Source of the DNA: Acutalibacteraceae bacterium
GTDB lineage: Bacteria > Bacillota > Clostridia > Oscillospirales > Acutalibacteraceae
Length of the DNA stretch: 64,000 bases
Direction: 5' to 3'
Assembly: GCA_045604805.1 (NCBI GenBank)
Contig: JAZUOT010000030.1
Coordinates: forward strand, 27,291-91,290
The notes under the pieces are model-generated. The model made no database searches and was not told the origin of the DNA. It worked only from the letters and a program-made list of their open reading frames with translations. Of the stretch, positions 7,621 to 23,598 are shown piece after piece. The stretch's first letter is position 1. Every line of letters begins with the position of its first letter. The translations under genes were made by a program, and so were the position numbers.

Positions 7621-8376
7621 TCAAACAAAGATGCTTTTTGCAAGATTGTTTAACTTATGAAGCTGCCAAACATCATTCGCTCCCATGGCAACATACGGGT
7701 TTTCAGCAATAAGGGCATCAACTTTGTGACCAGAGTTGAGTAAGATCTTTATCGTGTCTGGTAAGTAATATTCTTTTTGAGCGTTACAATTATTTATTTT
7801 TTCAAGAGAAAAAAGTAGATCATTCTTATCAAAAACATACACACCAGAACTTATTTCTTTTATCTTTCTCTGTTCTTCGCTTACATCTTTTTCTTCAACT
7901 ATAGCCTGCAGCAAAGCACTATTATTATCTCGAATTATTCTGCCATAGCCACTTGGATCTTCTAGTACAGCCGATACAACAGTTGCAGAATTATTTTTAC
8001 TGAAGTGATATTTTAGGGTATTTTCTAGTGTTTTGCTATCAATAAAAGGGGCATCACCATTTAAAACAACTACTGAATTGCAAGCATTCTCTTTTAGGAT
8101 TTTTTCAGCACACATAACAGCATGACCAGTTCCTAGGCGTTTACTCTGAAAGACTGTGCACACATCCGGGAATTTTTCCTTCAAATAAGATTCAACTATG
8201 TGATTTTTAAAGCCTGTAACTACACAAACCTTTCCGCAAGAAATATCTAAACAAGATTCGATCACATAACTTAGCATTGGTTTACCTAAAACCTCTGACA
8301 TGACTTTAGGCTTATCTGAGTTCATGCGTTTTCCTTCGCCAGCAGCCAGGATGACACAGTAAGTACTAGGTTTCAT
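7621..8376 (-). CDS. glmU: GlmU-like UDP-GlcNAc pyrophosphorylase domain only (no left-handed beta-helix acetyltransferase domain)
   Basis: N-terminal VILAAGEGKRMNSDKPKV signature and glmU-prs synteny. The ORF stops at 251 aa, in the linker helix. Only 61 nt separate it from prs. Confidence 0.8.
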   Translation of the reverse strand: MKPSTYCVILAAGEGKRMNSDKPKVMSEVLGKPMLSYVIESCLDISCGKVCVVTGFKNHIVESYLKEKFPDVCTVFQSKRLGTGHAVMCAEKILKENACNSVVVLNGDAPFIDSKTLENTLKYHFSKNNSATVVSAVLEDPSGYGRIIRDNNSALLQAIVEEKDVSEEQRKIKEISSGVYVFDKNDLLFSLEKINNCNAQKEYYLPDTIKILLNSGHKVDALIAENPYVAMGANDVWQLHKLNNLAKSIFV

Positions 8377-8636: not shown

Positions 8637-8666
8637 GTTGATACTGTAAATGTTGATACTATAAAT
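8637..8666 (+). promoter_or_regulatory. tandem 15-nt duplication forming a near-consensus promoter for the giant gene
   Basis: GTTGATACTGTAAAT followed by GTTGATACTATAAAT. This reads as TTGATA (8638-8643), a 16-nt spacer, then TATAAA (8660-8665), about 25 nt upstream of the ATG at 8690. Confidence 0.4.
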
Positions 8667-8689: not shown

Positions 8690-8914
8690 ATGACACAAAG
8701 GGAAAAATATTATAAACATAAAGTAATGAGAATATTAATTGATAGCAGAGACAAAAATGAAGCAAAAAACAATCTGGAGATGGCTCAGATTCATCTATCA
8801 GATGGAGAGATTGAATATCTGAAAAATATATACAATAATTGCCGTGGTGGATCTTTTATAAGCTTAGGAGATAACACTTTAAGCATGCAAGAACTTGATG
8901 AAGTTGCAGGAGGA
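8690..8914 (+). other. 75-aa leader region ending in LSMQELDEVAGG (double-glycine processing motif)
   Basis: Fits the LSxxELxxIxGG consensus of C39-peptidase-processed leaders. It aligns with the leader of the 33428..36658 gene: GEIEYLKNIYNN versus EEIDTLKNFFQN, and LSMQELDEVAGG versus LTFSQLDDVAGG. Confidence 0.6.
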
Positions 8915-11900
8915 GTACCACTCAAGTATTATATTTCCCGCAAAGAGGCAAAAAAACTACACGAAATGTTAAATAAGCTCACTGTTAATACTGGTAAACA
9001 AGGAGATACTATACATACTATTTACGGTGAACGTATTTCTCAGTCGAGAACAGCTGCCACACAAGAACAAGTAGAAGAATTTATGAGTCTTTTTGAAAGA
9101 AATCATCCTGGCGCCCCCAACAAACTGGACGTCAATGGAAACGAAGAAGTATTTAGTGATTTCGGGCGTTTCCGGGACCTAATAGATGAGGGACAAATAG
9201 TTTCTTCAGAAAAAGGTATTGAAAATAGTGAGCTAGCATATAACCTAGCAATGGCTTTTCACGGCTCAGTAGAACTTACTGCAGACTCTGTTCCTAATCA
9301 GGATCAAGACTTTGCAAACAATCTTGCTCAAGCTCTCAGCGATGGTAATTTTAATGCGTTTGGGCATTTTGGTATGAATAGAAAAGATGATCTTGTTAAT
9401 AATATAATGAAATGTCAGCATGAAAGCCTATTTTTAAGCGGTGAAGAGATAAGAGTAGATATGCTTGACTTTGGAAGGAACTTGTTTAAGAGTTTGCCGT
9501 CTTGTGAAGTAGGTACATGCATAAGTACTGGTAAAGAACTGGCAGCTGCTTTTGAGAAAGCTAACCCAACTGAAAAAGAATCTATTGCTGAATTCAAAAT
9601 GGGTATTTTGATAGAAACTCTTCAAAAAATACGTGATAATGGTTCTTCTAATGTAGATGATGTTGCTTTTGGGAAAGAAACTGGCCTAACTGCAGGAAAT
9701 CTATCTCGCCACCAAGCGGGTTGTACGCTTGGGACTTACCGTGAAACACATAATTTTGATCCTTTTAGTAATATTGATTTTTCTCATTGTGAGGAGATAT
9801 GTAAACAGGCAAGAGAAGTTTATGAATCTTCTATTTCTATGGGGTACGAACTTGCAAGCAATCCGCTATTTTTTACGCGCCTCGCCTTGTTTTTTAGTAA
9901 ACTAGCACCATTTATTGAATTTACAGAAAAAAAAGGAAAAAGTGAAGAAGGCACCAAAAATCGTAATGGTGCAAATGGAGGTGGAAGTGAAACTAGCTCC
10001 TTGCTGGCTAGTGCTGTTTCTCTGTCCTCTTTTGGTGCTATTTCTCAAACCGGTTCGGAAGATAGCTCTCAAACCGCTTCGGAATCTAGGTCTCAAACCG
10101 GTTTGGAAGATAGCTCTCAAACCACCGGTTCGGAAGACGCTACCGAAGAAGAACAACGATTAAAATTATTAGATAAAATGGATCCAGACGTTATAAATTT
10201 GAATGATGTTGTATATACATCTGTATTTTTTGAAAATTTTTTTACAAGTCAATCATCCAAAATTTATGAAGATCTTATGAAGGCTTTGTCCTCGGATAAA
10301 TTGGACTTTAGTACAAAATATGTCGCACTCTGTTTAGCTATGTGTGTGGAAAGTGGATGTCGTTACTTCAATACAGCTATAAGCAAATTTGTGGACTCAT
10401 TAACAAAATCAGAGCAATCTATCCCAGAATTGACACCAATTTTGATGGCATTTTTAAAAGGAGTTTTTTTTAGGTTCGAACATATTAGAAACAAAAATAT
10501 AGTTAGGACTGCGATAATTCTAATGCCTAGGTTTAGAAAAGAATATGAGTATGGAGAATTAAGTGTTGCTCTATTATGTATGTTGGTGCGTGGTGCTACT
10601 TTAGAAAATGGAGTAGGAGTAGGAGTAGCACTAGAATTAAACTTTGCAGATGTGGTGTCAGGAGTGTACGACGTCATATATAGAATGATATGTTTCGATC
10701 TTACAAACTCCAGAAGTGAGAAAAATGGTTCTATATACATTTCCAAAGAGGCTCAAAAATTTATCGAATACGCTTGTAGTTTGATTCGTCAGACAGCTTG
10801 CTCTCCATATGTTCGTGATAGCTTTAACAGCGTATTAAGCGGAATTAATATGGGATTGGAAAATTATGCGCCAAAAGAGGGGATAAAGCGAGAAAAATAT
10901 GTTATAGACTTTTATGCTAATACTGTCGTTGTATGTACTATAGAATTACTTAGTGACTTAGTGAATGAATATCCCAGTCTTTGGAAAAATAATACAAAAA
11001 TTTCATCTAATTTATATCAAGTTTATAAGAATTTGATGAAATTTGCAGGATGTAATAAAAAAATTAATTGTAAGTTGACACCCAATAGTAACAGTGAAGG
11101 TGGATTAGCGATCAAATACCCATTGTTTGATCTATTTAAAGATATATGCGGTAAAAAGAAAGAAGCCTTTGACCAGATTAAGGCTGATTTTGCTTTATAC
11201 TTGCATAAGATAGACCCGGTTCTTGCTGCTATATTTCTAATTAATTTGTCTGAGGTTCAAGTTCGAGAAGTGGTTAAATTATTGCATGATCAAAAATATG
11301 AAGGACTAGAAACAATAATGGGGGGTCTTATGTACAACATATTCACAAAAGAACAATCGGAAGAAGAAAAAGCCAAACGTTTTATTTCAATGCTTCCTCT
11401 TGAAATAAGATTTGATATAGAGGCGCTTAGCACTCTGGTTACGGGTATTATTGAAAAATGCGATGAAATTGCCAAAGTGGTAGTATGCCAATCACTGGAG
11501 TCGAGACGGATGGTGTATTCTCGTAAAGTTGACCTTAAAGAAAAGAAGATGCTTGAAATTTCAAATGCAATATCCCCCCTTGAAGGTGAAAAACTTAGTG
11601 ATGAGAAAGTAAAGCTCATCGAAGGTGCTAGGAACGAGCAAACCGTTTTGAATATAGCCCATCGAACACAAAAGGGGTCATTACGTACACGGTTGAACTT
11701 TTGGTTGATGGTTCTTCAAAATTCAAAAGGTACACAATTAACTCCATTTGGTAACATGATTTTTAATAACGAAGATGCCGTGCGAGACCTCCTTAATAGA
11801 GAGCAAGGCAAATATATGATAAGGCAGAAAGCCAACTTAAAAAAGTTAAAGGAAGATTCAGAAGCCTTTGAGTCTGAAATTAACTCATCAGAAAAAATTA

Positions 11901-14900
11901 AGAATGCGAAAGAATCACTATTAGAATATTGTAATACTATTTTCTTATACGCATTGACAATAAGTAACTTAAAAGACATGCAAGAAGGGGATTTAAAAGT
12001 CAAACAAGAAGAACACTTTTTTGACGTTGTTGAAGTCGTGAGCAAGTATCTTAAAGATTTTAAAAATTTCGTGAAACTGCTTGACATTATTTTCGATCAA
12101 ACAGGAAAGCACCATTCCTTGGGTAAAATATATGAAGCCATGCAATCTAAACCAGGAGAGTGCCTCGCAACATTAATATTTGAGTTTAGAAGGGTGCTTG
12201 CTAGTAAGGAGCTTGCTACTTTTGAAGAAAAGGAAGCTCTTGTAAAAGACTTTTGCGCTCAGATAAGAAAACTCACTGAAAATAAAAGCTCAAATAGAAA
12301 AAAATTGTGCAGTAAATACATGGAAACAATTCTTAAAGCCGTTAGAAGTATGAGTGTTTCCCTAATCGCCCTAAACACAGAAAGCTCAATACAACTGTTC
12401 GAATCTATAATCTATGGATTTTGTGATGTTAATTTTTTTGGATCTCCTGAATTTGCGAATGTAGTGCTCGATGTAGCACATGACGCGCTTGGAACTCGGC
12501 ATATACACCAAGGGAAAATCCTTGAAAAAACTATAGAAGCTTACCTGAGAATGATAAGGATAAGGATCAATTTATTGGGACAGAATACAAAAAATCTACC
12601 TTTACAACTATTCCCTAAGAATAGTTATACAGAAAGAGAATATACATATTTTATACCGTCGTCTGAAATGGAAATAACAATAACTAAAAATTGGGGCATG
12701 TTTTTAGACCGTCTATGGCGAAAAGGAAATAAAATGTTCGAGGACATAATAGATTGGTGGGAGGATAAAGCCGAAGATTATACTATAGAAGAGACAAAAA
12801 AGATTGAATCAGAACTAAAAGAACTAAAAAAACCAGAAGAACTAAAAGAACTAAAAGAACCAGAAACACTAGAAGATATTATAAAAGGAATAGAAGAGCT
12901 TAAATCAGAAATAGAAAAAGAACTAGAAAAACTAAAAAAACCAGAAAAACCAGAAAAACCAAAAAAAGAATTAGATGACCTAAAGGAAAAATTAGATGAC
13001 CTAAAGAAAAAATTAGATGTCCTACAAAAAGATGCAGAAAAAGAATTACAATTAGAATTACAAGTAGAATGCATTTACTACTTATCTTTGTTTTTGTTGG
13101 AAAGAGACAAAAGTGGCAACTACAGAGAAAATTTCAAGAATAATAGTAATTTTTTGGACGTTACTAATCTCGCTGTTTGTTTCTGCCGCAGGCCCGATAC
13201 TATGGTAGTTGTATTGCTCAAATATTTGGAATTTTTTGACAGTGATTTCGCAACTAAGGTTAAAAATAAGTTCACTAGTATGTTAAATCGCGCATTGTCA
13301 AAAGAAGAGAAAGCCAGCTTAGATGCTGGAGAAGTAAAAGCCAGCTTAGATGCTAGAGAAGTAAAAGCACTTGATGCTATAGTCAAAAAAAACAAAAAAC
13401 TCTTTTTCTCAGAGTGTATGTTAGTATTGTCTGCTTGTGAGACGAAAATTGTGGAGTCGTTTTTCAAAGAAAAAGAAGTCTTCGATGCTTTCTCTGAAAA
13501 AAATCCTTATCTTGCGCTACACAACCGGGTAACGTCTGAATTGAATAAAGAGGAATCTACGATACCATTTAGAAATGAAATGAGGCCATTTTTTATTAAT
13601 GGAGAAGGTAGTACTTTAAGTATGAAAGCTATACCTTCTAGCAGTTATTTTGTAGATAGAGTGAAGCCATCTTCTACTAATGGAGCAGGTAGTACTTCAA
13701 GTAAGAGAGATGTACCTGTTATCGGCAGTTATTATGTAGATCCGACTGGATATGAAGTGGAGCCATTTTTTATTGGAGGAGAAGATATTACTTTAACGTT
13801 GAAAGGTCAACCTTTTAGCATTCATTCTATAGGTAAATCACATACGTCAGAGATGTCGATGCCAGAGATGTCAGAAGAAGACAAAGCTAAATTCTTTCTT
13901 TTCGTGGTGTCTAAAGAAATGTTTAGCATTGTGGGAAAAAATGAAGATGCAATATATCGCTATTTAGCAGGAGATAGTTTTGATTTCTTGCGTATAGGCG
14001 AAGTTTGTGGATTTAATGTAGAAGAAATTCAAAACTTTATAGATCTTTTCAGTAACATTAAAAAATTGCAAAGATTCCATAGCGGCATTGAAATTGTAAC
14101 TGGCACTTTGGGTAAAATACATTCATGTGCAGAGGTTATAGTATCAGATCTTGTGAAATCTTTAGATGCTCTAATTGAAAAACTTAAAGGATGTGGGGAA
14201 AATGAGGTAGGCTGTTTATTTCAATTGCAAAGATATCGTGAAAATTTGCTTTCCAGTCTGCTTCGAGAAAAAAACCCTGAGGAATTTTTAGCTCAGATAG
14301 AAGGTTGTTGTGGAGAACTTCATCTAGACGGTGTTAGAGAAGAAGTTATTAACGTTTTAACGGCAATTGCTAATTTTAAAACAGAACAAAAAACTAAATA
14401 TATACAGTTTCTAAGCGAACTTGTTCGTAAAATTAATCCTAAAATCATGAAATTTGTTGAAAAAAATATTAGAACAGAAAAAGGCAAAGTATTAGCTTAT
14501 AGGTTAATGGATAGACCTACTTCGGAAATAGGTTTGTATACAGAAGGATTTTTTCCATGTGTATTAAATGCGTGTCCTGAGGAAGAAGTGCTCGAGTTAA
14601 TTGAAAAGAGAAAATCATACTCACCAGTTATGTCAGCGATTTCAAAATCAAAGAATTATTCTAGGTTTGAGAACACATCTCGCAGATGCTTACTAAATTT
14701 ACCCTATTTTGATTTTAAAGAACTAAAAGACTCATTGCCGCTTGATGGTGTCATTTGGTGGCGTTGTTCGCATGCGATGCCTGGCCGTAAGCCGTTTGAT
14801 GAATATGGCACTACTGTAGCGAATATGATAGTACGCGATTCGACAGAATGCCTTTTCAGGGATTTAAGTGATGCTTCAAAAACATTGCAAATAGAAACAT

Positions 14901-17900
14901 GTAAGGATAGTATATTAGCAGTAGTGGGTCTGAGCAAAGAGGGGGTATTTTATGATAGAGAAGGGAAACCTGGTAATATTATTAAGGAGCCATTTTTTAT
15001 AGGAGAAGGAAATGGCTATACTGAAGAAAATGTAAAAGAACTATTAGTAAATATTGCCAAAAAAGTGCCCGTTCATGATCGCTTTGAATTTTTAGCTGAC
15101 CTACTCTCTCAGATTAGAGATTACGATAGAATCTTTCAGATGTACGATAAGAAATATGATAGATTTAGTCCAAAAGGAGAACTTCTGGTACGGTTGCTAA
15201 CGCATGTCTTTTTAAATCTTTCTAGCCCCGAAGATATAACTAGTTTTCTTAGCAAAATGGTCTTGTCTATATATCGTAAAAATGAGTTCAGAGACTCTTT
15301 TGTGGCAATGGAAATATTTCTTAATACAGTATTTGAAATTGCGAATGGAATCCAAGATCACGAAGAAAGAATGAAAGTAATAACTCTTGTCGGGGAGTTA
15401 ATATATAATAGATCAATAGCAACATCATTTTACAATACTGATCGTAACTTTGTGTTGATCAAATATGAACATAAAAACGAAATGGCTGCAAAGTTTTTGA
15501 ATAGATTCCTATTAAACGCATTAACCCCAAAAGATAGACTACAACTTGAAGAGCTGATCCAAGTCCTTTTATACTTTGAGCCTGTTGAAAAAATAAATAG
15601 TCAATTTGCAGGCATGCTTATCAAAGGACTCATCGAAAGACCTAATGGAGAAAAAAATATAGTCGACGTTATCTTTATCCTTTTAACTACTCCTTTTGTG
15701 TTGCGTAGTAATTACCTTATGAGTTCTAGAGGCAATATCTCATCTGAATGTCTGATTGGAATTTTTAGCGAAGCTCAAAAACTCGTCAATAAACATGATA
15801 AATTTCCAGTAGAACCTGAATATTTGACAGACGTTATAAGATATTTACTTGATAGATATATAGTTCGAATTTTTAAATCTGAAGATAAAACAACTCTTGG
15901 AGGTCTGGGTGTATGTGAAACGTGCATAGATATAATTGTACAGATGTTAGCCAAAGTAGCCAAAGAACAAATACCAGTTATCTTTAATAGTATTCTTCAG
16001 GATTATTTTGTTCCTAAAGGTATGTCCAAAGCCATCATAGAAAATGGAGGTTTTCGTCGTAATTCGTATGAACGCGAATGCGCTTGCGCTACATTTTTGC
16101 TAATATTCCTCCATAAAGTTATGCTTCGAGCACCAGAGTATGATGTTGTCAAAGAGCTTTTTACACGTCTTCAAACCTATAGCCTAGAAATGGAGAAAGC
16201 CTATTTTGAAAATCTCTTTACTACTGAAAATTTCTGTATGAAAATATGCGCTCGTTTAGTTAACGGAATCATATTTTCTCCGCAGTCTTTGTTAGCTCCG
16301 TTGAATATTAGTGGCGTGTTAAGGCATTTTTTCTATTTAGTAGAAAGAGAAGAGCGTATATACAGAGGAATCCACGATGTGGAGGCTGTACAACGGGAAA
16401 TTGAAGAAGGGAAAAAACCAGTTAAAGAAGAGAAAAAACCACGTCATTTATTACTATTCCGATCATCAAGTCGAAAAGAGCAGCCAAAAGAGCAGCCAAA
16501 AGAGTTTGTATCAAGCGAACAACTATTAACCGAATTACAGTGCGATGTAATGAAGGAGGAATCTACAAAAGTATCAAAAGAAAAAGACCAACTTGCTGGT
16601 TTCAATGAAAAAACAGAAGGAGACCTACTCAGTAAAATTGAAGCTAAAAAAGACGCCGAAAAAAAAGTAAGAGAGCAACAAAAAAAAATAAAAGATTTAA
16701 CAAAAGAAGTACAAAAATTAGAAAAAAAGATAGTAGACGAAAGATGCGATCTAGACTTGGAAAATGATAAATTAAAGGAATTCACGCGTGTTAGAAATGT
16801 AATGGAAAATTTAGTGGAACAACGGAACGCAGAGATAAAAAAAATAGACGAAATACCTGAAAATGAGCAAAGACCAGAAGATGTAGAAAGAAAAAAAGAA
16901 ATGGAGCGCTCAATTGCGAACCTTGAAAGTGAAAAAGATAGACTTGAAAAAGAAAAAAAAGAATGCGAGGATCGGTTAAGTGAGTTAGGCAAAAATTTGG
17001 AAGATCTAGAAGGAGAATATGGCAAAAAACAGGGTGAATTAGACGCTGCAAAGAAAGATTTAGACTCAGAAGTAAAACAAATGACTGAAGCAGAAAAGGA
17101 GTTATCAAAAGGAATTAAAAGTGGAGGAGATGTAAATTACTCAATAACAATTAGTCAAAGGGACCTAGACCTAGTGTTTGCAGGGAATTTAGAAACCGCA
17201 GAAAAGGAGGGACTTGCAAAGCTAAAAAATCAATTAGACGATAAAGAAGCTAGCTTAGAAAAGGCAAAAGCTGAATTAGAAAATAAAAAAAAGGACTTTG
17301 AAGAGCAAAGAGATACTTTACTGCAGGAAAATGGAATAGAACAAGATACATTAAATCTGAGCGAGGATCCTGTTAAACAAGTAGAAGCAATAAGAGAAAA
17401 AATAAAAGAAAAAATAAAAGACCAAGGAAAAGAAGAAGAAGAAAGAAATGCAAAAGATAAAGAAGAAAAAATACTAGAAAAAATGGCGAAAGAATATGAA
17501 CTTGAAGAAACAAAACTTGGACAAGAAATAGAAAAATTAGAATATGAAATATATGTAAAAGAATTATCTATGGTAAGCTTATCAACAGACTTACTAAAAG
17601 ACATAACAGAAACATATGGCAGCCCAGAAAAAGCGATATCTGCTAAAAAGAAGGATGTAGAGGATGAAAAACTAGACGAGGAAGACAGAACTAAGCGGAT
17701 CGAAGTCTCAAAAGGGATAGTACGTGCAAAGCAGGAAGAATTATCGAAAAAAAATGATATGTTATCACGAGCGTCGGCAACTGTACTAAGAATAGAAGAA
17801 GAATTAAAAATTAAAGTAGCCGAATTAGAAGCCGTACGAGAACGCTCAAGCCGAATAGATGTTGAGATAACAGAGTTAACCGAACAAAGAAAAGCAAAAC

Positions 17901-19387
17901 ATGAAGAACAAACAAGAAAACTTGAAGAATTTATTATGCAAGAAGAGGCTAAGGAAGATGCGGGAAAACAATCTTGTTTCAAAGATGATATTCGAAGATT
18001 AGCACAAAAAGAAGCTTTTAACCTACGACAAGAAATGAGCGAATTATCTGAAGAAATCGAGGATCTAGACAATCAAATAAAAGAAAAAAAGCAAGAGAAA
18101 TTAGCATTACCAGATAAACTAGAAAAAGCAGAAAAAGCCGTAAAACAAAAAAAAGCTGAATTAAGCTCGGTACAACAGAGTATGGGTAAAGTAAATGACT
18201 CAACTCGAGTCATTGAAGGGGCACTAAGGCAGGAAGGAGAATATATACTTAAACTTGAAGCAGACTTAGCTTCAATAAGAGAAAGCATAAAACAAAATGA
18301 GCAAGAAGTAAAAAATCTGGAGGCTGTAGCAGCCGCAGTAAATGGTGTGCCATGGTATCTAATTAATGACTGTTTAATCCCAAAAACGGAAGAATTCTAC
18401 AGAGAATTATGTGAAAGTAACATGATAGGAAAATACTTCCATAAATCTTTCAATAAGGTAAGATTAGAATTACAACAATTTAGGAGCGACTCAATAGGAA
18501 AACAAATTGAAAAATTAAATGAAGAAAAGAAAAAATGTGAGAGAAAATTAAAAAAAACAGGGGAGAAAATAGAACAAACAGAAGAAGAAGAGCTTAAAGC
18601 AAATGATGCGATTGACCTTATATCAAATGACGATCAATTGTCTGGTGCCCAAAAAATGGCTAAAATGCAACAATGGCAAAAAAAAATTACTGATGCACGA
18701 AAGAAACGTGAAATTCTATTGGAAGAAGAAAAAAAATGGAAAAACGAATTAGAAAAAATAGAAGAAGACTTAAATCCACTTAAAGAAGTACAGAGAAAGG
18801 TAAACGAAGGAAAGAAAAGAAAAGAAGATATGGAGCGAAAATACCCACAACTAAAAGGATTAGACGAAGCATTAAAAAAATTAGGGCAAGGAAAATTTGA
18901 CTTATTCTCAGAACAAAAAAAGCTAAAAGAAGAAAAAGTAAAAGAATTAAACATAGAAAAAGGAAAAGCAGCAGAAGAAGCAAAAAGAAAAGCAGCAGAA
19001 GCAGCAGCAGGAAAAGTAGCAGAAGTAGCAAAAGCAGCAGAAGAAGTAGAAAAGGAAAAACAGGAGGTAGAAACAAAAGAAAAAGGAGTAGAAAGAACAG
19101 AAAAAACAGTAAAGAAAAAAGAAAGAAAAGCAGCAGAAAAAGAAAAAAAAATAACAGAAGCAGTCAAAAGAAGAAAAGAGTTAGAATCAGAGGCAAAAGA
19201 AAGAAGATTAAAAATGCTAGAAGAAGCGTTAAATGGAACACTCATGCCTACTACAGCAGGAGGAGTAGTAGAAGGAGAAGGAAAAGGAGAAGGAGAAGGA
19301 AAAGGAAAAGTAAAAGGAGAAGGAGAAGGAGAAGAGAAGAAGAAGAAAAAGAAGAAAAAGGAGAAAAAGGAGAAAAAGGAGAAATAG
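8690..19387 (+). CDS. giant 3565-aa protein: double-glycine (Nif11/bacteriocin-type) leader, long helical core, about 1000-aa K/E-rich coiled-coil C-terminus
   Basis: Single uninterrupted ORF. ATG at 8690 lies 9 nt after AGAGGGTG (the ORF track starts at GTG 8678). No Sec signal peptide, LPXTG motif or clear TM segment was seen by eye. No enzymatic motif was recognised. Confidence 0.8.
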   Translation: MTQREKYYKHKVMRILIDSRDKNEAKNNLEMAQIHLSDGEIEYLKNIYNNCRGGSFISLGDNTLSMQELDEVAGGVPLKYYISRKEAKKLHEMLNKLTVNTGKQGDTIHTIYGERISQSRTAATQEQVEEFMSLFERNHPGAPNKLDVNGNEEVFSDFGRFRDLIDEGQIVSSEKGIENSELAYNLAMAFHGSVELTADSVPNQDQDFANNLAQALSDGNFNAFGHFGMNRKDDLVNNIMKCQHESLFLSGEEIRVDMLDFGRNLFKSLPSCEVGTCISTGKELAAAFEKANPTEKESIAEFKMGILIETLQKIRDNGSSNVDDVAFGKETGLTAGNLSRHQAGCTLGTYRETHNFDPFSNIDFSHCEEICKQAREVYESSISMGYELASNPLFFTRLALFFSKLAPFIEFTEKKGKSEEGTKNRNGANGGGSETSSLLASAVSLSSFGAISQTGSEDSSQTASESRSQTGLEDSSQTTGSEDATEEEQRLKLLDKMDPDVINLNDVVYTSVFFENFFTSQSSKIYEDLMKALSSDKLDFSTKYVALCLAMCVESGCRYFNTAISKFVDSLTKSEQSIPELTPILMAFLKGVFFRFEHIRNKNIVRTAIILMPRFRKEYEYGELSVALLCMLVRGATLENGVGVGVALELNFADVVSGVYDVIYRMICFDLTNSRSEKNGSIYISKEAQKFIEYACSLIRQTACSPYVRDSFNSVLSGINMGLENYAPKEGIKREKYVIDFYANTVVVCTIELLSDLVNEYPSLWKNNTKISSNLYQVYKNLMKFAGCNKKINCKLTPNSNSEGGLAIKYPLFDLFKDICGKKKEAFDQIKADFALYLHKIDPVLAAIFLINLSEVQVREVVKLLHDQKYEGLETIMGGLMYNIFTKEQSEEEKAKRFISMLPLEIRFDIEALSTLVTGIIEKCDEIAKVVVCQSLESRRMVYSRKVDLKEKKMLEISNAISPLEGEKLSDEKVKLIEGARNEQTVLNIAHRTQKGSLRTRLNFWLMVLQNSKGTQLTPFGNMIFNNEDAVRDLLNREQGKYMIRQKANLKKLKEDSEAFESEINSSEKIKNAKESLLEYCNTIFLYALTISNLKDMQEGDLKVKQEEHFFDVVEVVSKYLKDFKNFVKLLDIIFDQTGKHHSLGKIYEAMQSKPGECLATLIFEFRRVLASKELATFEEKEALVKDFCAQIRKLTENKSSNRKKLCSKYMETILKAVRSMSVSLIALNTESSIQLFESIIYGFCDVNFFGSPEFANVVLDVAHDALGTRHIHQGKILEKTIEAYLRMIRIRINLLGQNTKNLPLQLFPKNSYTEREYTYFIPSSEMEITITKNWGMFLDRLWRKGNKMFEDIIDWWEDKAEDYTIEETKKIESELKELKKPEELKELKEPETLEDIIKGIEELKSEIEKELEKLKKPEKPEKPKKELDDLKEKLDDLKKKLDVLQKDAEKELQLELQVECIYYLSLFLLERDKSGNYRENFKNNSNFLDVTNLAVCFCRRPDTMVVVLLKYLEFFDSDFATKVKNKFTSMLNRALSKEEKASLDAGEVKASLDAREVKALDAIVKKNKKLFFSECMLVLSACETKIVESFFKEKEVFDAFSEKNPYLALHNRVTSELNKEESTIPFRNEMRPFFINGEGSTLSMKAIPSSSYFVDRVKPSSTNGAGSTSSKRDVPVIGSYYVDPTGYEVEPFFIGGEDITLTLKGQPFSIHSIGKSHTSEMSMPEMSEEDKAKFFLFVVSKEMFSIVGKNEDAIYRYLAGDSFDFLRIGEVCGFNVEEIQNFIDLFSNIKKLQRFHSGIEIVTGTLGKIHSCAEVIVSDLVKSLDALIEKLKGCGENEVGCLFQLQRYRENLLSSLLREKNPEEFLAQIEGCCGELHLDGVREEVINVLTAIANFKTEQKTKYIQFLSELVRKINPKIMKFVEKNIRTEKGKVLAYRLMDRPTSEIGLYTEGFFPCVLNACPEEEVLELIEKRKSYSPVMSAISKSKNYSRFENTSRRCLLNLPYFDFKELKDSLPLDGVIWWRCSHAMPGRKPFDEYGTTVANMIVRDSTECLFRDLSDASKTLQIETCKDSILAVVGLSKEGVFYDREGKPGNIIKEPFFIGEGNGYTEENVKELLVNIAKKVPVHDRFEFLADLLSQIRDYDRIFQMYDKKYDRFSPKGELLVRLLTHVFLNLSSPEDITSFLSKMVLSIYRKNEFRDSFVAMEIFLNTVFEIANGIQDHEERMKVITLVGELIYNRSIATSFYNTDRNFVLIKYEHKNEMAAKFLNRFLLNALTPKDRLQLEELIQVLLYFEPVEKINSQFAGMLIKGLIERPNGEKNIVDVIFILLTTPFVLRSNYLMSSRGNISSECLIGIFSEAQKLVNKHDKFPVEPEYLTDVIRYLLDRYIVRIFKSEDKTTLGGLGVCETCIDIIVQMLAKVAKEQIPVIFNSILQDYFVPKGMSKAIIENGGFRRNSYERECACATFLLIFLHKVMLRAPEYDVVKELFTRLQTYSLEMEKAYFENLFTTENFCMKICARLVNGIIFSPQSLLAPLNISGVLRHFFYLVEREERIYRGIHDVEAVQREIEEGKKPVKEEKKPRHLLLFRSSSRKEQPKEQPKEFVSSEQLLTELQCDVMKEESTKVSKEKDQLAGFNEKTEGDLLSKIEAKKDAEKKVREQQKKIKDLTKEVQKLEKKIVDERCDLDLENDKLKEFTRVRNVMENLVEQRNAEIKKIDEIPENEQRPEDVERKKEMERSIANLESEKDRLEKEKKECEDRLSELGKNLEDLEGEYGKKQGELDAAKKDLDSEVKQMTEAEKELSKGIKSGGDVNYSITISQRDLDLVFAGNLETAEKEGLAKLKNQLDDKEASLEKAKAELENKKKDFEEQRDTLLQENGIEQDTLNLSEDPVKQVEAIREKIKEKIKDQGKEEEERNAKDKEEKILEKMAKEYELEETKLGQEIEKLEYEIYVKELSMVSLSTDLLKDITETYGSPEKAISAKKKDVEDEKLDEEDRTKRIEVSKGIVRAKQEELSKKNDMLSRASATVLRIEEELKIKVAELEAVRERSSRIDVEITELTEQRKAKHEEQTRKLEEFIMQEEAKEDAGKQSCFKDDIRRLAQKEAFNLRQEMSELSEEIEDLDNQIKEKKQEKLALPDKLEKAEKAVKQKKAELSSVQQSMGKVNDSTRVIEGALRQEGEYILKLEADLASIRESIKQNEQEVKNLEAVAAAVNGVPWYLINDCLIPKTEEFYRELCESNMIGKYFHKSFNKVRLELQQFRSDSIGKQIEKLNEEKKKCERKLKKTGEKIEQTEEEELKANDAIDLISNDDQLSGAQKMAKMQQWQKKITDARKKREILLEEEKKWKNELEKIEEDLNPLKEVQRKVNEGKKRKEDMERKYPQLKGLDEALKKLGQGKFDLFSEQKKLKEEKVKELNIEKGKAAEEAKRKAAEAAAGKVAEVAKAAEEVEKEKQEVETKEKGVERTEKTVKKKERKAAEKEKKITEAVKRRKELESEAKERRLKMLEEALNGTLMPTTAGGVVEGEGKGEGEGKGKVKGEGEGEEKKKKKKKKEKKEKKEK
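10043..10141 (+). repeat. four in-frame 24-nt tandem repeats (SQTGSEDS units)
   Basis: TCTCAAACCGGTTCGGAAGATAGC, TCTCAAACCGCTTCGGAATCTAGG, TCTCAAACCGGTTTGGAAGATAGC, then TCTCAAACCACCGGTTCGGAAGACGCT. Confidence 0.9.
12812..13030 (+). repeat. cluster of in-frame tandem repeats (27 nt x2, 9 nt x3, 21 nt x3)
   Basis: ELKELKKPE/ELKELKEPE at 12812-12865. CCAGAAAAA x3 at 12941-12967. (E/K)LDDLKEK-type 21-mers at 12968-13030. Confidence 0.9.
13313..13378 (+). repeat. 27-nt in-frame tandem repeat, 2.4 copies (ASLDAGEVK/ASLDAREVK/ALDA)
   Basis: GCCAGCTTAGATGCTGGAGAAGTAAAA, then GCCAGCTTAGATGCTAGAGAAGTAAAA, then GCACTTGATGCT. Confidence 0.9.
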
Positions 19388-21726: not shown

Positions 21727-23598
21727 ATGGTGGCGGTAATTTTGGAACAAAGCAAGCTTGAAAATATTCTTTTAAAAGTTCAAAGGCCAGGTAGATATGT
21801 TGGCGGAGAATTAAATAGTGTATATAAAAATTTAGATGAGACTGGTATACACTTTGCCTTTTGTTTTCCAGATGTATATGAAATTGGGATGTCATATTTG
21901 GGCATGAAAATAATATATAGCCTTTTAAATTCTATGGACGGGGTATGGTGTGAAAGAGTTTTTGCGCCTTGGCCAGACATGGAAGAACAGATGAGAAACA
22001 ACGATATATTTTTGTATAGTCTCGAAAGTAAAACTGAGCTTTACAAATTTGATATTATAGGTTTTACTCTCCAGTATGAATTGAGCTATACAAATATTTT
22101 GAATATGCTAAGTTTGGGTGGCATTCCACTTTTAGCGAAAAAGCGTAAAGGCTTAGAAAATCTTGTTGTGGCTGGAGGACCTTGTAGCTGCAATCCTGAA
22201 CCTCTTGCTGATTTTATCGATGTATTTTTCTTGGGTGAGGGAGAAAATAGCGTAAGTGAGTTTGTTGATTTGTACAGTAAAAGTAAGGAAAGCGGAGATG
22301 ATAGGGCTAGCTTTTTGAGAAAAGCTGCTCAAATTCAGGGGGTATATGTGCCTTCGCTATACCGTATTACTTATAATTCTGATGGAACGTTGGAATCTGT
22401 TATTCCTGAAGAAGGAGCTCCCAAACAAGTAAAGAAAAGCATAGTACTTGATCTTTCCAAATCGCATTTTCACGAAAGTTTTCCTGTTCCTTTAATAGAA
22501 GTGGTGCATGATAGAGTAGAAGGTGAAATTTTTAGAGGTTGTATACGTGGGTGTCGTTTCTGTCAGGCTGGATTTATATATAGACCTGTACGCGAAAAAG
22601 CTGCTGATGTTGTTAATGAGCAATGTAAGGTCTTATGTCAAAATACAGGACATGATTCTCTATCTTTATGTTCTTTAAGTTCCAGTGATTATTCTCAGCT
22701 CAGTGAATTGATAAAATTGTTGGATGAATGGACTGAGCAAGAAAAAATTTCGATTTCTCTGCCATCTTTGAGGATAAATAGTTTATCTGATGAGCTTATC
22801 AATAAGATCAAATCATTTGGTAAATCTGGGCTTACATTTGCTCCAGAGGCAGGTACTCAGCGTTTAAGAAATGTTATAAACAAAAATGTGGACGAAAATG
22901 AAATATTTAGCACCTGTAAAAAAGCATTCAAAAATGGGTGGACTAATCTTAAGCTGTACTTTATGTTAGGTTTACCTACTGAAACGGAAGATGATATCGT
23001 CGCTATACCTGAGATGGCTAATAAAATCATAGATACATACTATGAAGATAAGACTTTGCCTAAAAAACGCCCACCCAAGTTGACAATAAGCACGGCGGCT
23101 TTTGTGCCAAAACCATTTACTCCTTTTCAATGGGAAGCACAGGATAACATAAAGACAATGGGAAAAAAACAAAAATTGCTTATAGGTAGTAACAATAACA
23201 ATAAAGTTAAATGCAACTATCATTGCGCTCAAACAAGTTTTATAGAAGCGGTTTTTGCCAGGGGTGACAGAAAACTTTCAAAAGTTCTATTGAAGGCACA
23301 TAGGCTTGGTTTAAAATTTGACGCTTGGACCGAATATTTTGATTTTAAAAAGTGGTCGGAAGTTTTTAAGTTATGCAAAATAGATCCAGAATTTTATGCT
23401 TGCAGAAAACGAAATTTTGATGAAATATTTCCTTGGGATCATTTGGATTATGGTATTAGTAAAGAATTTTTAATAAGAGAATGTCAAAAGGCACACCAAA
23501 CAGAAACTACAAAAAATTGTAAGGAAGAGTGCCAAAATTGCGGTGCTAATTGTTTTGGTGGGGGTGTTTGCTTTGAAAAAAATACGTGTACGATTTAA
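21727..23598 (+). CDS. B12-binding-domain radical SAM protein (TIGR03960-like)
   Basis: 623 aa. RPGRYVGGELNS N-terminus and CIRGCRFCQAG (CxxxCxxC) cluster motif. Followed by its usual DUF2344 partner. Confidence 0.85.
   Translation: MVAVILEQSKLENILLKVQRPGRYVGGELNSVYKNLDETGIHFAFCFPDVYEIGMSYLGMKIIYSLLNSMDGVWCERVFAPWPDMEEQMRNNDIFLYSLESKTELYKFDIIGFTLQYELSYTNILNMLSLGGIPLLAKKRKGLENLVVAGGPCSCNPEPLADFIDVFFLGEGENSVSEFVDLYSKSKESGDDRASFLRKAAQIQGVYVPSLYRITYNSDGTLESVIPEEGAPKQVKKSIVLDLSKSHFHESFPVPLIEVVHDRVEGEIFRGCIRGCRFCQAGFIYRPVREKAADVVNEQCKVLCQNTGHDSLSLCSLSSSDYSQLSELIKLLDEWTEQEKISISLPSLRINSLSDELINKIKSFGKSGLTFAPEAGTQRLRNVINKNVDENEIFSTCKKAFKNGWTNLKLYFMLGLPTETEDDIVAIPEMANKIIDTYYEDKTLPKKRPPKLTISTAAFVPKPFTPFQWEAQDNIKTMGKKQKLLIGSNNNNKVKCNYHCAQTSFIEAVFARGDRKLSKVLLKAHRLGLKFDAWTEYFDFKKWSEVFKLCKIDPEFYACRKRNFDEIFPWDHLDYGISKEFLIRECQKAHQTETTKNCKEECQNCGANCFGGGVCFEKNTCTI

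Follow-up and report, generated by a model that had tools for sequence, protein, structure and literature searches.

Two large proteins with a common N-terminal segment

Why should two large proteins whose bodies bear no resemblance to each other begin with the same short segment, and what might that segment do for them? This question is raised by genes A and B, which lie on opposite strands of the window (the whole 64-kb stretch of DNA analysed here). A first-pass annotation had described the segment as a leader of about 45 aa that ends in a GG motif and is read by one dedicated export or processing machine encoded elsewhere. We located both leaders, with the Gly-Gly codons ending at 8914 in gene A and at 36464 in gene B, and delineated gene A as follows:

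8690..19387, + strand: gene A, a single 10.7-kb ORF encoding 3,565 aa from ATG 8690
8690..8914, + strand: leader A, 75 aa, MTQREKYYKHKVMRILIDSRDKNEAKNNLEMAQIHLSDGEIEYLKNIYNNCRGGSFISLGDNTLSMQELDEVAGG (based on the ORF and its sequence, pairwise and window-wide statistics, the family profile and position statistics)
8909..8914, + strand: Gly-Gly codons of gene A, where the family alignment ends at the same column in all members
8915..19387, + strand: cargo A, 3,490 aa plus stop, an orphan

The ORF of gene A opens at GTG 8678, and its start is probably ATG 8690, with the ribosome-binding site AGAGGG 11 nt upstream. This start is favoured over the one assigned at first, ATG 8780, which is internal to the conserved region and directly abutted by GGAG. 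The leaders (A, 75 aa; B, 65 aa) are longer than the 45 aa initially estimated, and their homology runs upstream through HKV...L..-RD-..E. In leader A, a helical N-terminal portion precedes the recognition box at the C-terminal end, L-S-M-Q-E-L-D-E-V-A-G-G, with L(-12), S(-11), E(-8), L(-7), V(-4), A, G and G as its key residues (numbered back from the last Gly). A cut after G75 is predicted, and the mature cargo would then begin VPLKYYIS.... Cargo A had no homologue in Pfam, NCBIfam or the PDB (the latter by sequence search), contained no transmembrane or other hydrophobic segment, and is K/E-rich and coiled-coil-like in its C-terminal third; it looks like a cytoplasmic coiled-coil protein without extracellular hallmarks, which counts against its export. 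A word-indexed homology search with the first 430 aa of gene A returned no match, and the self-match was missing too.

Gene B was resolved into the following features:

36658..33428, - strand: gene B, from ATG 36658 to the stop at 33428, 1,076 aa
36464..36658, - strand: leader B, 65 aa, MLDLHKVDWKALQELRDEREVYEYFARLGMQVTPEEIDTLKNFFQNVVSEGNVLTFSQLDDVAGG (based on sequence, BLASTP and window statistics, the family profile and an AF2 model)
33428..36463, - strand: cargo B, 1,011 aa plus stop, which begins with four more Gly and then FTILRQRS...
33914..34651, - strand: PARG/macrodomain-like region of a divergent microbial type, ~aa 670-915 of B (based on TIGR02452, PF10021 and an alignment to 5zda)
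33431..33781, - strand: Pro-rich low-complexity C-terminal tail of cargo B, with PPPLP and PPPAPQP repeats read from the translation

The recognition box of leader B reads L-T-F-S-Q-L-D-D-V-A-G-G, with L(-12), T(-11), Q(-8), L(-7) and V(-4) before A, G and G. The GG is common to both leaders, as had been noted, and matches the canonical double-glycine processing site. No transmembrane segment was detected in cargo B. Its PARG-like region contains GG-x8-QEE (EQGGFVLTGAISQEE) along with GCGAFGN, a motif resembling a diphosphate loop, and matched TIGR02452 (E = 1.6e-8; 34.4 bits, under the cutoff of 50) and PF10021 (E = 0.0086); a weak alignment to the Deinococcus radiodurans PARG 5zda retains the motifs QGG-x8-QEE and GLFGCGAFGN. 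An AF2 single-sequence model of this region had a pLDDT of only 34 and was unusable, so that the PARG fold is unconfirmed by the model. PARG activity of this type is normally intracellular, an observation that runs against export of cargo B.

The shared segment is homologous and modular

BLASTP of the first ~100 residues aligned A with B at E = 1e-6 (25/79 identities), and among 1,175 six-frame segments of the window the two leaders were each other's best non-self match (BLASTP, E = 6e-5 and 2e-3). The same comparison by phmmer with the leader pair was weaker and marginal (E = 0.04-0.11). Taken by themselves, these pair statistics are suggestive and not overwhelming. Identity amounts to ~32-38% over the entire leader, and the earlier estimate that about half the positions are identical holds in ungapped blocks only. 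An independent profile of 34 homologous leaders, built without A, B and the four sequences closest to either of them, was run against the six-frame window and retrieved both leaders (B, E = 2.8e-21; A, E = 6e-11), with the next-best segment at 0.16; leader searches found no third leader in the 64-kb window. Together with the database search described below, this result confirmed the similarity and therefore places A and B in a genuine leader family. Chance similarity of two low-complexity N-termini, to which the phmmer values alone would point, is refuted by the BLASTP value, the independent profile and 58 independent members, and we assign it virtually no probability. The segment is a modular N-terminal tag, as originally proposed, and the statement that A and B are unrelated downstream of the GG also stands, since the two cargos show no BLAST similarity to each other.

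A leader family found mostly in metagenome assemblies

A profile of leaders A and B (A1) was run against 1.84 billion (1.84e9) representative proteins and matched 63 of them at E <= 1e-3, with E-values down to 1e-10. In 59 of the 63, the matched segment is the very N-terminus of the protein and runs to the final profile column, which is the GG. These comprise the gene B product itself (P0001) and 58 new proteins. The other four, rejected as unrelated, are repeat proteins that match internally and in several copies; two of them are eukaryotic EF-hand repeat proteins. The GG falls at residue 54-109 of the family proteins, mostly at residue 60, and metagenome assemblies (Logan or ENA) are the source of all but five members. 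P0001, an NCBI protein on a 105,902-bp contig, is identical to the gene B product and its sole database match; the word-indexed search with gene B returned only this self-match, and the Pro-rich tail probably swamped the word candidates.

Scans of genome contigs with A1 and with A3 found nothing, the second probably among 600 candidates at most; a scan of viral contigs was likewise empty, profile scans of metagenome contigs gave nothing or one spurious internal match (L001), and a word-indexed search with the leader alignment returned no match. No Pfam or NCBIfam model captures the leader family, and our literature search on double-glycine or Nif11-type leaders on large Gram-positive proteins found no report. 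The recognition box is known and the leader family is new, and the range of cargos and the genomic organisation are highly unusual.

Anatomy of the leader

The alignment of 40 family leaders (A2) has the consensus M-x-N-L-x-x-L-E-E-L-R-[TD]-K-E-E-[LV]-x-x-Y-F-x-x-x-G-x-x-I-T-x-E-E-I-E-x-L-K-x-x-Y, followed by a variable N/D-rich linker and then L-T-x-Q-Q-L-D-x-V-A-G-G. Its N-terminal helical module has an invariant R and E and then G-x-x-[IV]-[TS]-x-E-E-[IL]-x-x-L-K, and the module shared by A and B ends in ...L-[ST]-x-x-[EQ]-L-D-[ED]-V-A-G-G. Conservation of the box in 60 leaders was as follows:

Position -12: L in 100% (n = 60)
Position -8: Q/E in 98% (n = 60)
Position -7: L in 98% (n = 60)
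Position -4: V/I in 100% (n = 60)
Position -3: A in 83% (n = 60)
Position -2: G in 98% (59/60)
Position -1: G in 100% (60/60)

The same position statistics revealed a bias to hydrophobic residues at +2 to +4 after the GG, which a tag that serves for cleavage alone would not be expected to show. An AF2 model of leader B, based on an alignment of 27 sequences, reached a mean pLDDT of 66.6 (70-85 in the N-terminal part) and contained helices at residues 9-13, 18-27 and 34-50, a low-confidence linker and a further short helix at residues 56-62 (positions -10 to -4). A Foldseek search of this model against the PDB returned no significant match, only sub-threshold EF-hand look-alikes.

The leader carries a predicted C39-type recognition box and resembles Nif11 leaders

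In the cryo-EM structure of substrate-bound PCAT1, a helix spanning -10 to -4 lies in a hydrophobic groove of the C39 peptidase domain, a hydrophobic knot involves -7 and -12, position -4 sets specificity, and the GG occupies a narrow active-site cleft (PMC6959990). The invariant positions of the family are those that PCAT1 reads, and on this account we counted the box for C39 recognition. LahT150 is the C39 domain of a PCAT from Lachnospiraceae; it cleaves nine precursors of the Nif11 type, for which it requires no more than the last 13 residues of the leader (PMC6363468). Judged by sequence, the last 13 residues of the family leaders carry every known recognition determinant of C39 peptidases and PCATs. 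We further translated XY33a, a ProcA-type Nif11 precursor that LahT150 cleaves, from Table 5 of PMC6363468, and found that the family profile aligns in register with its last 18 residues and ends at the GG (E = 1e-4, for a single comparison).

Among the NCBIfam models, TIGR03798 (leader_Nif11) ranked first, with 23 of the 40 leaders matching at E <= 1 (best E = 1.3e-5), always under the curated cutoff (19.8 bits for a consensus-like member vs 32.3 bits); PF07862 (Nif11) matched 4/40 leaders (best E = 0.07). Against curated leader models at E <= 1, leaders A and B gave no match, except that of A to the CTB bacteriocin model (0.12). Precursors of the Nif11 type are known to occur in expanded sets of paralogues, at a distance from the export genes (PMC2887384). 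The family shares with them a long leader (54-109 aa) that ends in GG and the presence of several genes per sample, dispersed or in tandem; the short, low-complexity Cys/Gly/Ser-rich core associated with LanM or a cyclodehydratase does not match the family cargos, with their median of 188 aa. As far as sequence can tell, the family would thus work like a double-glycine, distantly Nif11-like leader, and its members are not filed under TIGR03798 because their scores lie below the curated cutoff.

Several other N-terminal signals were considered for A and B and rejected. A Sec or Tat signal did not fit, with no hydrophobic segment anywhere in either protein (Kyte-Doolittle, window 19, threshold 1.6) and no Pfam match; a type IV pilin leader (G|F-TLIE plus a 20-aa hydrophobic stretch) was dismissed on motif grounds; and the LXG/WXG domain of type VII secretion was dismissed as its motif is absent.

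One leader on many unrelated cargos

The 60 cargos have a median length of 188 aa and span 0 to 3,490 aa (0 to ~1,000 aa in the 58 further members); 47 of the 60 are longer than 116 aa, and five are longer than 700 aa. The 54 cargos of at least 30 aa fell into 48 groups that BLAST did not connect (threshold E <= 1e-3), with A and B as singletons, and conservation therefore stops at the GG. Some members are just a leader followed by a hydrophobic or Gly-rich peptide of 20-50 aa and resemble bacteriocin precursors; one of the family (P0052) matched the Pfam model Bacteriocin_IIc. Another ~22-25 members combine a globular domain, a Pro/Ser-rich spacer, one C-terminal transmembrane segment and a short K-rich tail (29% K/R vs 17% just upstream). 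The architecture of spacer, membrane segment and basic tail suggests membrane-anchored surface proteins that span the wall and may hold their N-terminal domain outside. As a separate observation, C-termini of a conserved CaaX-like type, NLS-like tails, proline-rich tails or a PARG-like domain occur in some cargos.

Cargo genes are dispersed among housekeeping genes

The window is an ordinary Firmicute core chromosome with mfd-pth-prs-glmU-like, pfk, rpmH-yidC-jag, dxs, feoB and pyrH-frr-uppS-cdsA-dxr-rseP-ispG-polC. The GC3 of genes A and B equals that of the surrounding housekeeping genes, and we therefore regard them as resident and not recently acquired. We scanned all ORFs of >= 145 aa that were not nested in, or largely overlapped by, a longer assigned gene, and detected no C39 peptidase or ABC exporter in the 64-kb window, in agreement with the first-pass annotation, which had placed the transporter outside it. 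Searches for a shared upstream regulatory motif in A, B and seven homologous genes found nothing beyond AT-rich noise, promoter scans did not rise above the shuffled expectation, and Rfam and tRNA scans of the window were empty.

We also inspected eight family loci from metagenome assemblies, all of 30-36% GC. Single cargo genes stand among housekeeping genes at L002, L003 (where the gene adjoins spoIIP), L006, L008 and L009, and tandem triplets of small Gly-rich bacteriocin-like cargos occur at L004 and L007; at L008, cargos of 702 aa and 106 aa lie side by side, with a third leader at the contig end. Together with polC in the window, the spoIIP gene beside a cargo gene points to Firmicutes related to endospore formers. 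Epulopiscium was considered as a source on account of the giant genes, but a paper on it (PMC10756260) offers no link and it is not claimed here; a literature search for the sample accessions found none. Taking a sample as a single organism, which is an assumption, SRR22585850 holds three leader genes on three separate contigs and SRR33322315 at least six leader genes. A C39-ABC transporter, whose presence beside further cargo genes had been put forward as a check, was found at none of the eight loci. Of the original idea of a shared tag with multiple substrates, the many unrelated cargos and the several genes per sample are thus borne out, and the expected link to an exporter did not emerge from the eight related loci. 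Since neither the window nor these loci contain an exporter and the cargo genes are scattered among housekeeping genes, a link of the family to an exporter is inferred.

No modifying enzyme adjoins the cargo genes at 10 cargo loci. The radical-SAM gene of the window, at 21727-23598, forms part of an rSAM/DUF2344 pair that lies ~2.3 kb downstream of gene A, beyond pfk, and has no comparable counterpart beside the cargo genes of the related loci; we take it to be a conserved housekeeping pair.

Proposed mechanism and alternative explanations

Homology of the leaders, the family, its motif, the diversity of the cargos, the dispersal of their genes and the absence of a Sec-type signal are established by the analyses above. 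On this basis, we consider it reasonably probable that A and B are precursors with a double-glycine leader that are cut by a C39 peptidase or PCAT and exported as two of its many substrates. Positions -10 to -4 of the box would form a short amphipathic helix and dock in the hydrophobic groove of the C39 cysteine-peptidase domain, which most likely would be part of a PCAT encoded elsewhere in the genome; the peptidase would cut after the Gly-Gly, and the transporter would move the cargo across the membrane. With one tag on many unrelated cargos scattered on the chromosome, a single machine may serve dispersed substrates, and the same distribution is the reason for which we propose a multi-substrate system. 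We infer C39 recognition, cleavage and, above all, translocation of the 1,011- and 3,490-residue cargos. Export draws indirect support from the lack of a Sec-type signal in these proteins, from the small bacteriocin-like members of the family and from the ~22-25 members with the spacer, membrane segment and basic tail.

Cargo size is the weak point of the export reading. The cavity of PCAT1, which works by alternating access, fits one cargo of 66 aa (PMC6959990), and in the MccV system PCAT export declines steeply at ~116 aa (PMC10231218); the documented range of ~100 aa is far exceeded by the cargos of A and B, a point that the first-pass annotation had not considered. This conflict leaves three ways out, namely transporters of a threading type, processing without export, or a module that stays uncleaved. 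Processing without export, in which a C39-type protease (stand-alone or a PCAT domain) removes the leader as an inhibitory, chaperoning or targeting pro-domain while large cargos remain cytoplasmic or tail-anchored, would accommodate these sizes, as well as the coiled-coil-like cargo A without extracellular hallmarks and the PARG-like domain of cargo B, and isolated C39 domains such as LahT150 do cut substrates by themselves in vitro (PMC6363468). However, PCATs strictly couple cleavage to translocation and release no cargo into the cytosol (PMC6959990), the small bacteriocin-like cargos are typical exported products, and the members with spacer, membrane segment and basic tail suggest N-terminal domains outside the cell; we judge this alternative unlikely.

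An uncleaved helical docking or assembly domain of ~60 aa, Nif11-like or EF-hand-like, with the GG as a flexible linker, would agree with the weak EF-hand-type Pfam matches of 24 of the 40 leaders (best E = 0.0012), the EF-hand repeat proteins among the false positives of the profile, the folded three-helix part of the AF2 model (pLDDT 70-85) and the hydrophobic bias that continues past the GG. Yet the most conserved columns are those read by C39 peptidases (-12, -7, -4, -2 and -1), the DxDxDG loop of EF-hands is absent, and conservation ends abruptly at the GG over 48 cargo types; the fold has no significant match in the PDB, and a domain of this kind sits poorly with members that are a leader plus a bacteriocin-like peptide of 20-50 aa. 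We give this reading little credence. Even less probable, and close to dismissal, is a RiPP-type leader whose Nif11-like module recruits a lanthionine synthetase, cyclodehydratase or radical SAM enzyme as in the prochlorosins: the sub-threshold Nif11-leader similarity and the radical-SAM gene of the window point towards it, whereas the cargos are long and of the size of folded proteins rather than Cys/Ser/Thr-rich cores, the 10 cargo loci have no modifying enzymes beside them, and the rSAM/DUF2344 pair is not tied to A or B.

The reading of exported precursors can be taken further, with considerable doubt. In an endospore-former-related low-GC Firmicutes lineage, the double-glycine/PCAT-type pathway might act as a general route of secretion and surface display parallel to Sec, natively moving cargos of the size of folded proteins and even giant ones (to 3,490 aa) and inserting C-terminally anchored surface proteins; by the C-termini, tails and PARG-like domain listed above, some of the cargos look as if directed at eukaryotic host cells. 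We regard this as a tentative possibility that is rather doubtful at present; if true, it needs threading or lateral release beyond the current alternating-access model of PCATs.

Significance and comparison with known systems

Double-glycine leaders and peptidase-ABC transporters are usually regarded as a route for peptides and mini-proteins, a view backed by structural work, with a closed cavity for one cargo of ~66 aa, and by engineering work, in which export failed at ~116 aa. The natural family described here fuses the recognition box to dozens of unrelated proteins, mostly of 150-1,000 aa and once of 3,490 aa. If these proteins are exported, the mechanistic model of PCATs needs extension, Gram-positive bacteria gain a further general secretion pathway, and the simple, predictable tag could be put to use in secretion engineering. 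Without export, C39 processing would instead have a function inside the cell that has so far gone unrecognised. An HMM of the leaders, which no curated model annotates, may also offer a handle on the secreted and surface proteome of a poorly known, uncultured-looking clade.

The closest known counterparts are the Nif11-type leaders (N11P; the prochlorosin ProcA, and LahA1-9 of Lachnospiraceae C6A11; PMC2887384, PMC6363468), which are processed by the C39 domain of LahT/PCAT and share with the family a partly helical leader of 60-75 aa ending in ...L-S/T-x-x-E/Q-L-x-x-V-A-G-G, conservation that ends at the GG, the use of one leader on many paralogous precursors whose genes are often distant, and occurrence in Firmicutes. 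In contrast to them, the family scores below the HMM cutoff, with A and B lacking a match, and has its own N-terminal signature, LEELR-x-K-E-E...G-x-x-IT-E-E-E-I-x-x-LK. Instead of a short Cys/Ser/Thr-rich core, it carries cargos whose length has a median of 188 aa and reaches 3,490 aa, and modifying enzymes are not nearby.

Class II bacteriocin and microcin leaders (ComA, LagD, CvaB, PCAT1; TIGR01847) have the same LSxxELxxIxGG-type box with hydrophobic residues at -4, -7 and -12, and some of the Gly-rich tandem cargos are bacteriocin-like in the same way (the Bacteriocin_IIc match being one example). These leaders measure ~15-30 aa, precede cargos of less than ~100 aa and are encoded beside transporter and immunity genes, whereas the family leader is two to three times longer, its genes are dispersed among housekeeping genes, and most of its cargos are large.

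In RTX type I secretion (HlyB-type, with a C39-like domain), an ABC transporter of the same superfamily moves unfolded proteins of >1,000 aa, which indicates that size alone does not exclude ABC-driven export. There, the signal sits at the C-terminus and is not removed, the C39-like domain has lost its catalytic activity, the machinery is tripartite and Gram-negative, and the substrates contain RTX repeats; none of these features occurs in A or B. Finally, the LXG/WXG100 domains of Gram-positive type VII secretion and the CTD of type IX secretion resemble the leader in that one module is attached to many unrelated, dispersed effector bodies. Neither is related to the leader in sequence or motif: LXG modules are ~200 aa long and uncleaved, and the leader has no WXG or LXG motif.

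C-terminal ends of leader-bearing proteins

We further considered the C-terminal ends of the proteins carrying the leader shared by genes A and B, and found that about 22-25 of 57 carry one hydrophobic, TM-like segment near the C-terminus, with a short tail beyond it. Members listed with this arrangement, all outside the window, are P0002, P0006, P0013, P0014, P0017, P0018, P0019, P0027, P0032, P0035, P0036, P0039, P0041, P0044, P0045, P0046, P0049, P0053, P0058, P0059, and P0060. The tail follows a recurring pattern, [N/S/G]-[N/S/G]-x-D-K-K/N (e.g., NNNDKK, SSDDDKNKK, and SNNPDKN), and the segment and patterned tail together resemble either a tail anchor or a C-terminal sorting signal of an unrecognised kind. 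No such C-terminal end is encoded by gene A or gene B. A CaaX-box-like C-terminal motif preceded by an acidic stretch is conserved in one homologous cargo family (P0025, P0028, and P0040, ending in GCIIM, SCVIM, and SCTLL; alignment A6), and P0005 and P0012 have NLS-like C-termini (PSKRARK and PAKRQKTQ). Taken alongside the PARG-like domain of gene B and its proline-rich tail, the CaaX-like and NLS-like ends hint, speculatively, at proteins acting in eukaryotic cells.

Leader variants and EF-hand likeness

The leader profile cross-matched two eukaryotic EF-hand repeat proteins from outside the window (P0024 and P0026) through a helix-loop segment, G-x-x-[IL]-T-x-E-E-[IL], and weak Pfam EF-hand matches were obtained for 24 of 40 leaders. 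Because the Ca-binding DxDxDG loop is absent from the leaders, this likeness seems to reflect either convergence or a very remote common ancestry. A more divergent leader subtype, …ELRDFNEVYEYF… with a VAGG or VSGG end, was observed in small genes arranged as syntenic tandem triplets in two metagenome loci:

L007, 8585-10049: triplet of small leader-bearing genes
L004, 859-2431: triplet of small leader-bearing genes

Their cargos are Gly-rich and hydrophobic, one of them being assigned to Pfam Bacteriocin_IIc, and a ClpB/ClpC-like AAA+ gene lies directly upstream of the L007 triplet.

Sequence within and around genes A and B

Just 5' of the gene A start, a 15-mer is directly repeated in tandem at 8637-8666 (plus strand; GTTGATACTGTAAAT / GTTGATACTATAAAT, 14/15 identical). 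This repeat may be a regulator binding site; the upstream regions of gene B and of the homologous genes showed no equivalent. Gene B is preceded by a run of nine G (36667-36675, minus strand), located 8 nt 5' of its ATG, which is its sole Shine-Dalgarno-like element and through which the open frame continues upstream to a TTG at 36700. Homopolymeric tracts can mediate slipped-strand phase variation.

Within gene A, short repeats (ELKELKKPE..., KASLDAGEV / KASLDAREV) occur in regions 12700-13100 and 16400-19387 (plus strand). Lys and Glu make up 31-45% of its last third, and the gene ends in GEGKGEGEGKGKVKGEGEGEE and then a K/E run including eight consecutive Lys. The following gene was also noted:

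7621-8376, minus strand: gene at the GlmU position, adjoining prs-pth-mfd; Pfam NTP_transferase

Its product consists of only the 251-aa nucleotidyltransferase domain, without the C-terminal acetyltransferase half expected of a full-length GlmU.

Residues directly after the double glycine

Across the family, the residues after GG are biased towards L/I/V/F/Y, which occupy +2 in 37/60, +3 in 33/60, and +4 in 29/60 proteins. Both window genes have such starts:

8915-8926, plus strand: positions +1 to +4 of gene A, whose post-GG sequence opens with VPLKYYI
36440-36451, minus strand: first residues after the Gly run of gene B, FTIL

Further hydrophobic examples are NLIFIL and LLMIIK. The exact predicted cut site of gene B is ambiguous because four extra glycines directly follow its GG motif (VAGG-GGGG-F; 36452-36463, minus strand), and cleavage could leave the mature protein with a flexible stretch of poly-Gly at its N-terminus. 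To our knowledge, classical double-glycine substrates show no comparable hydrophobic constraint just after GG.
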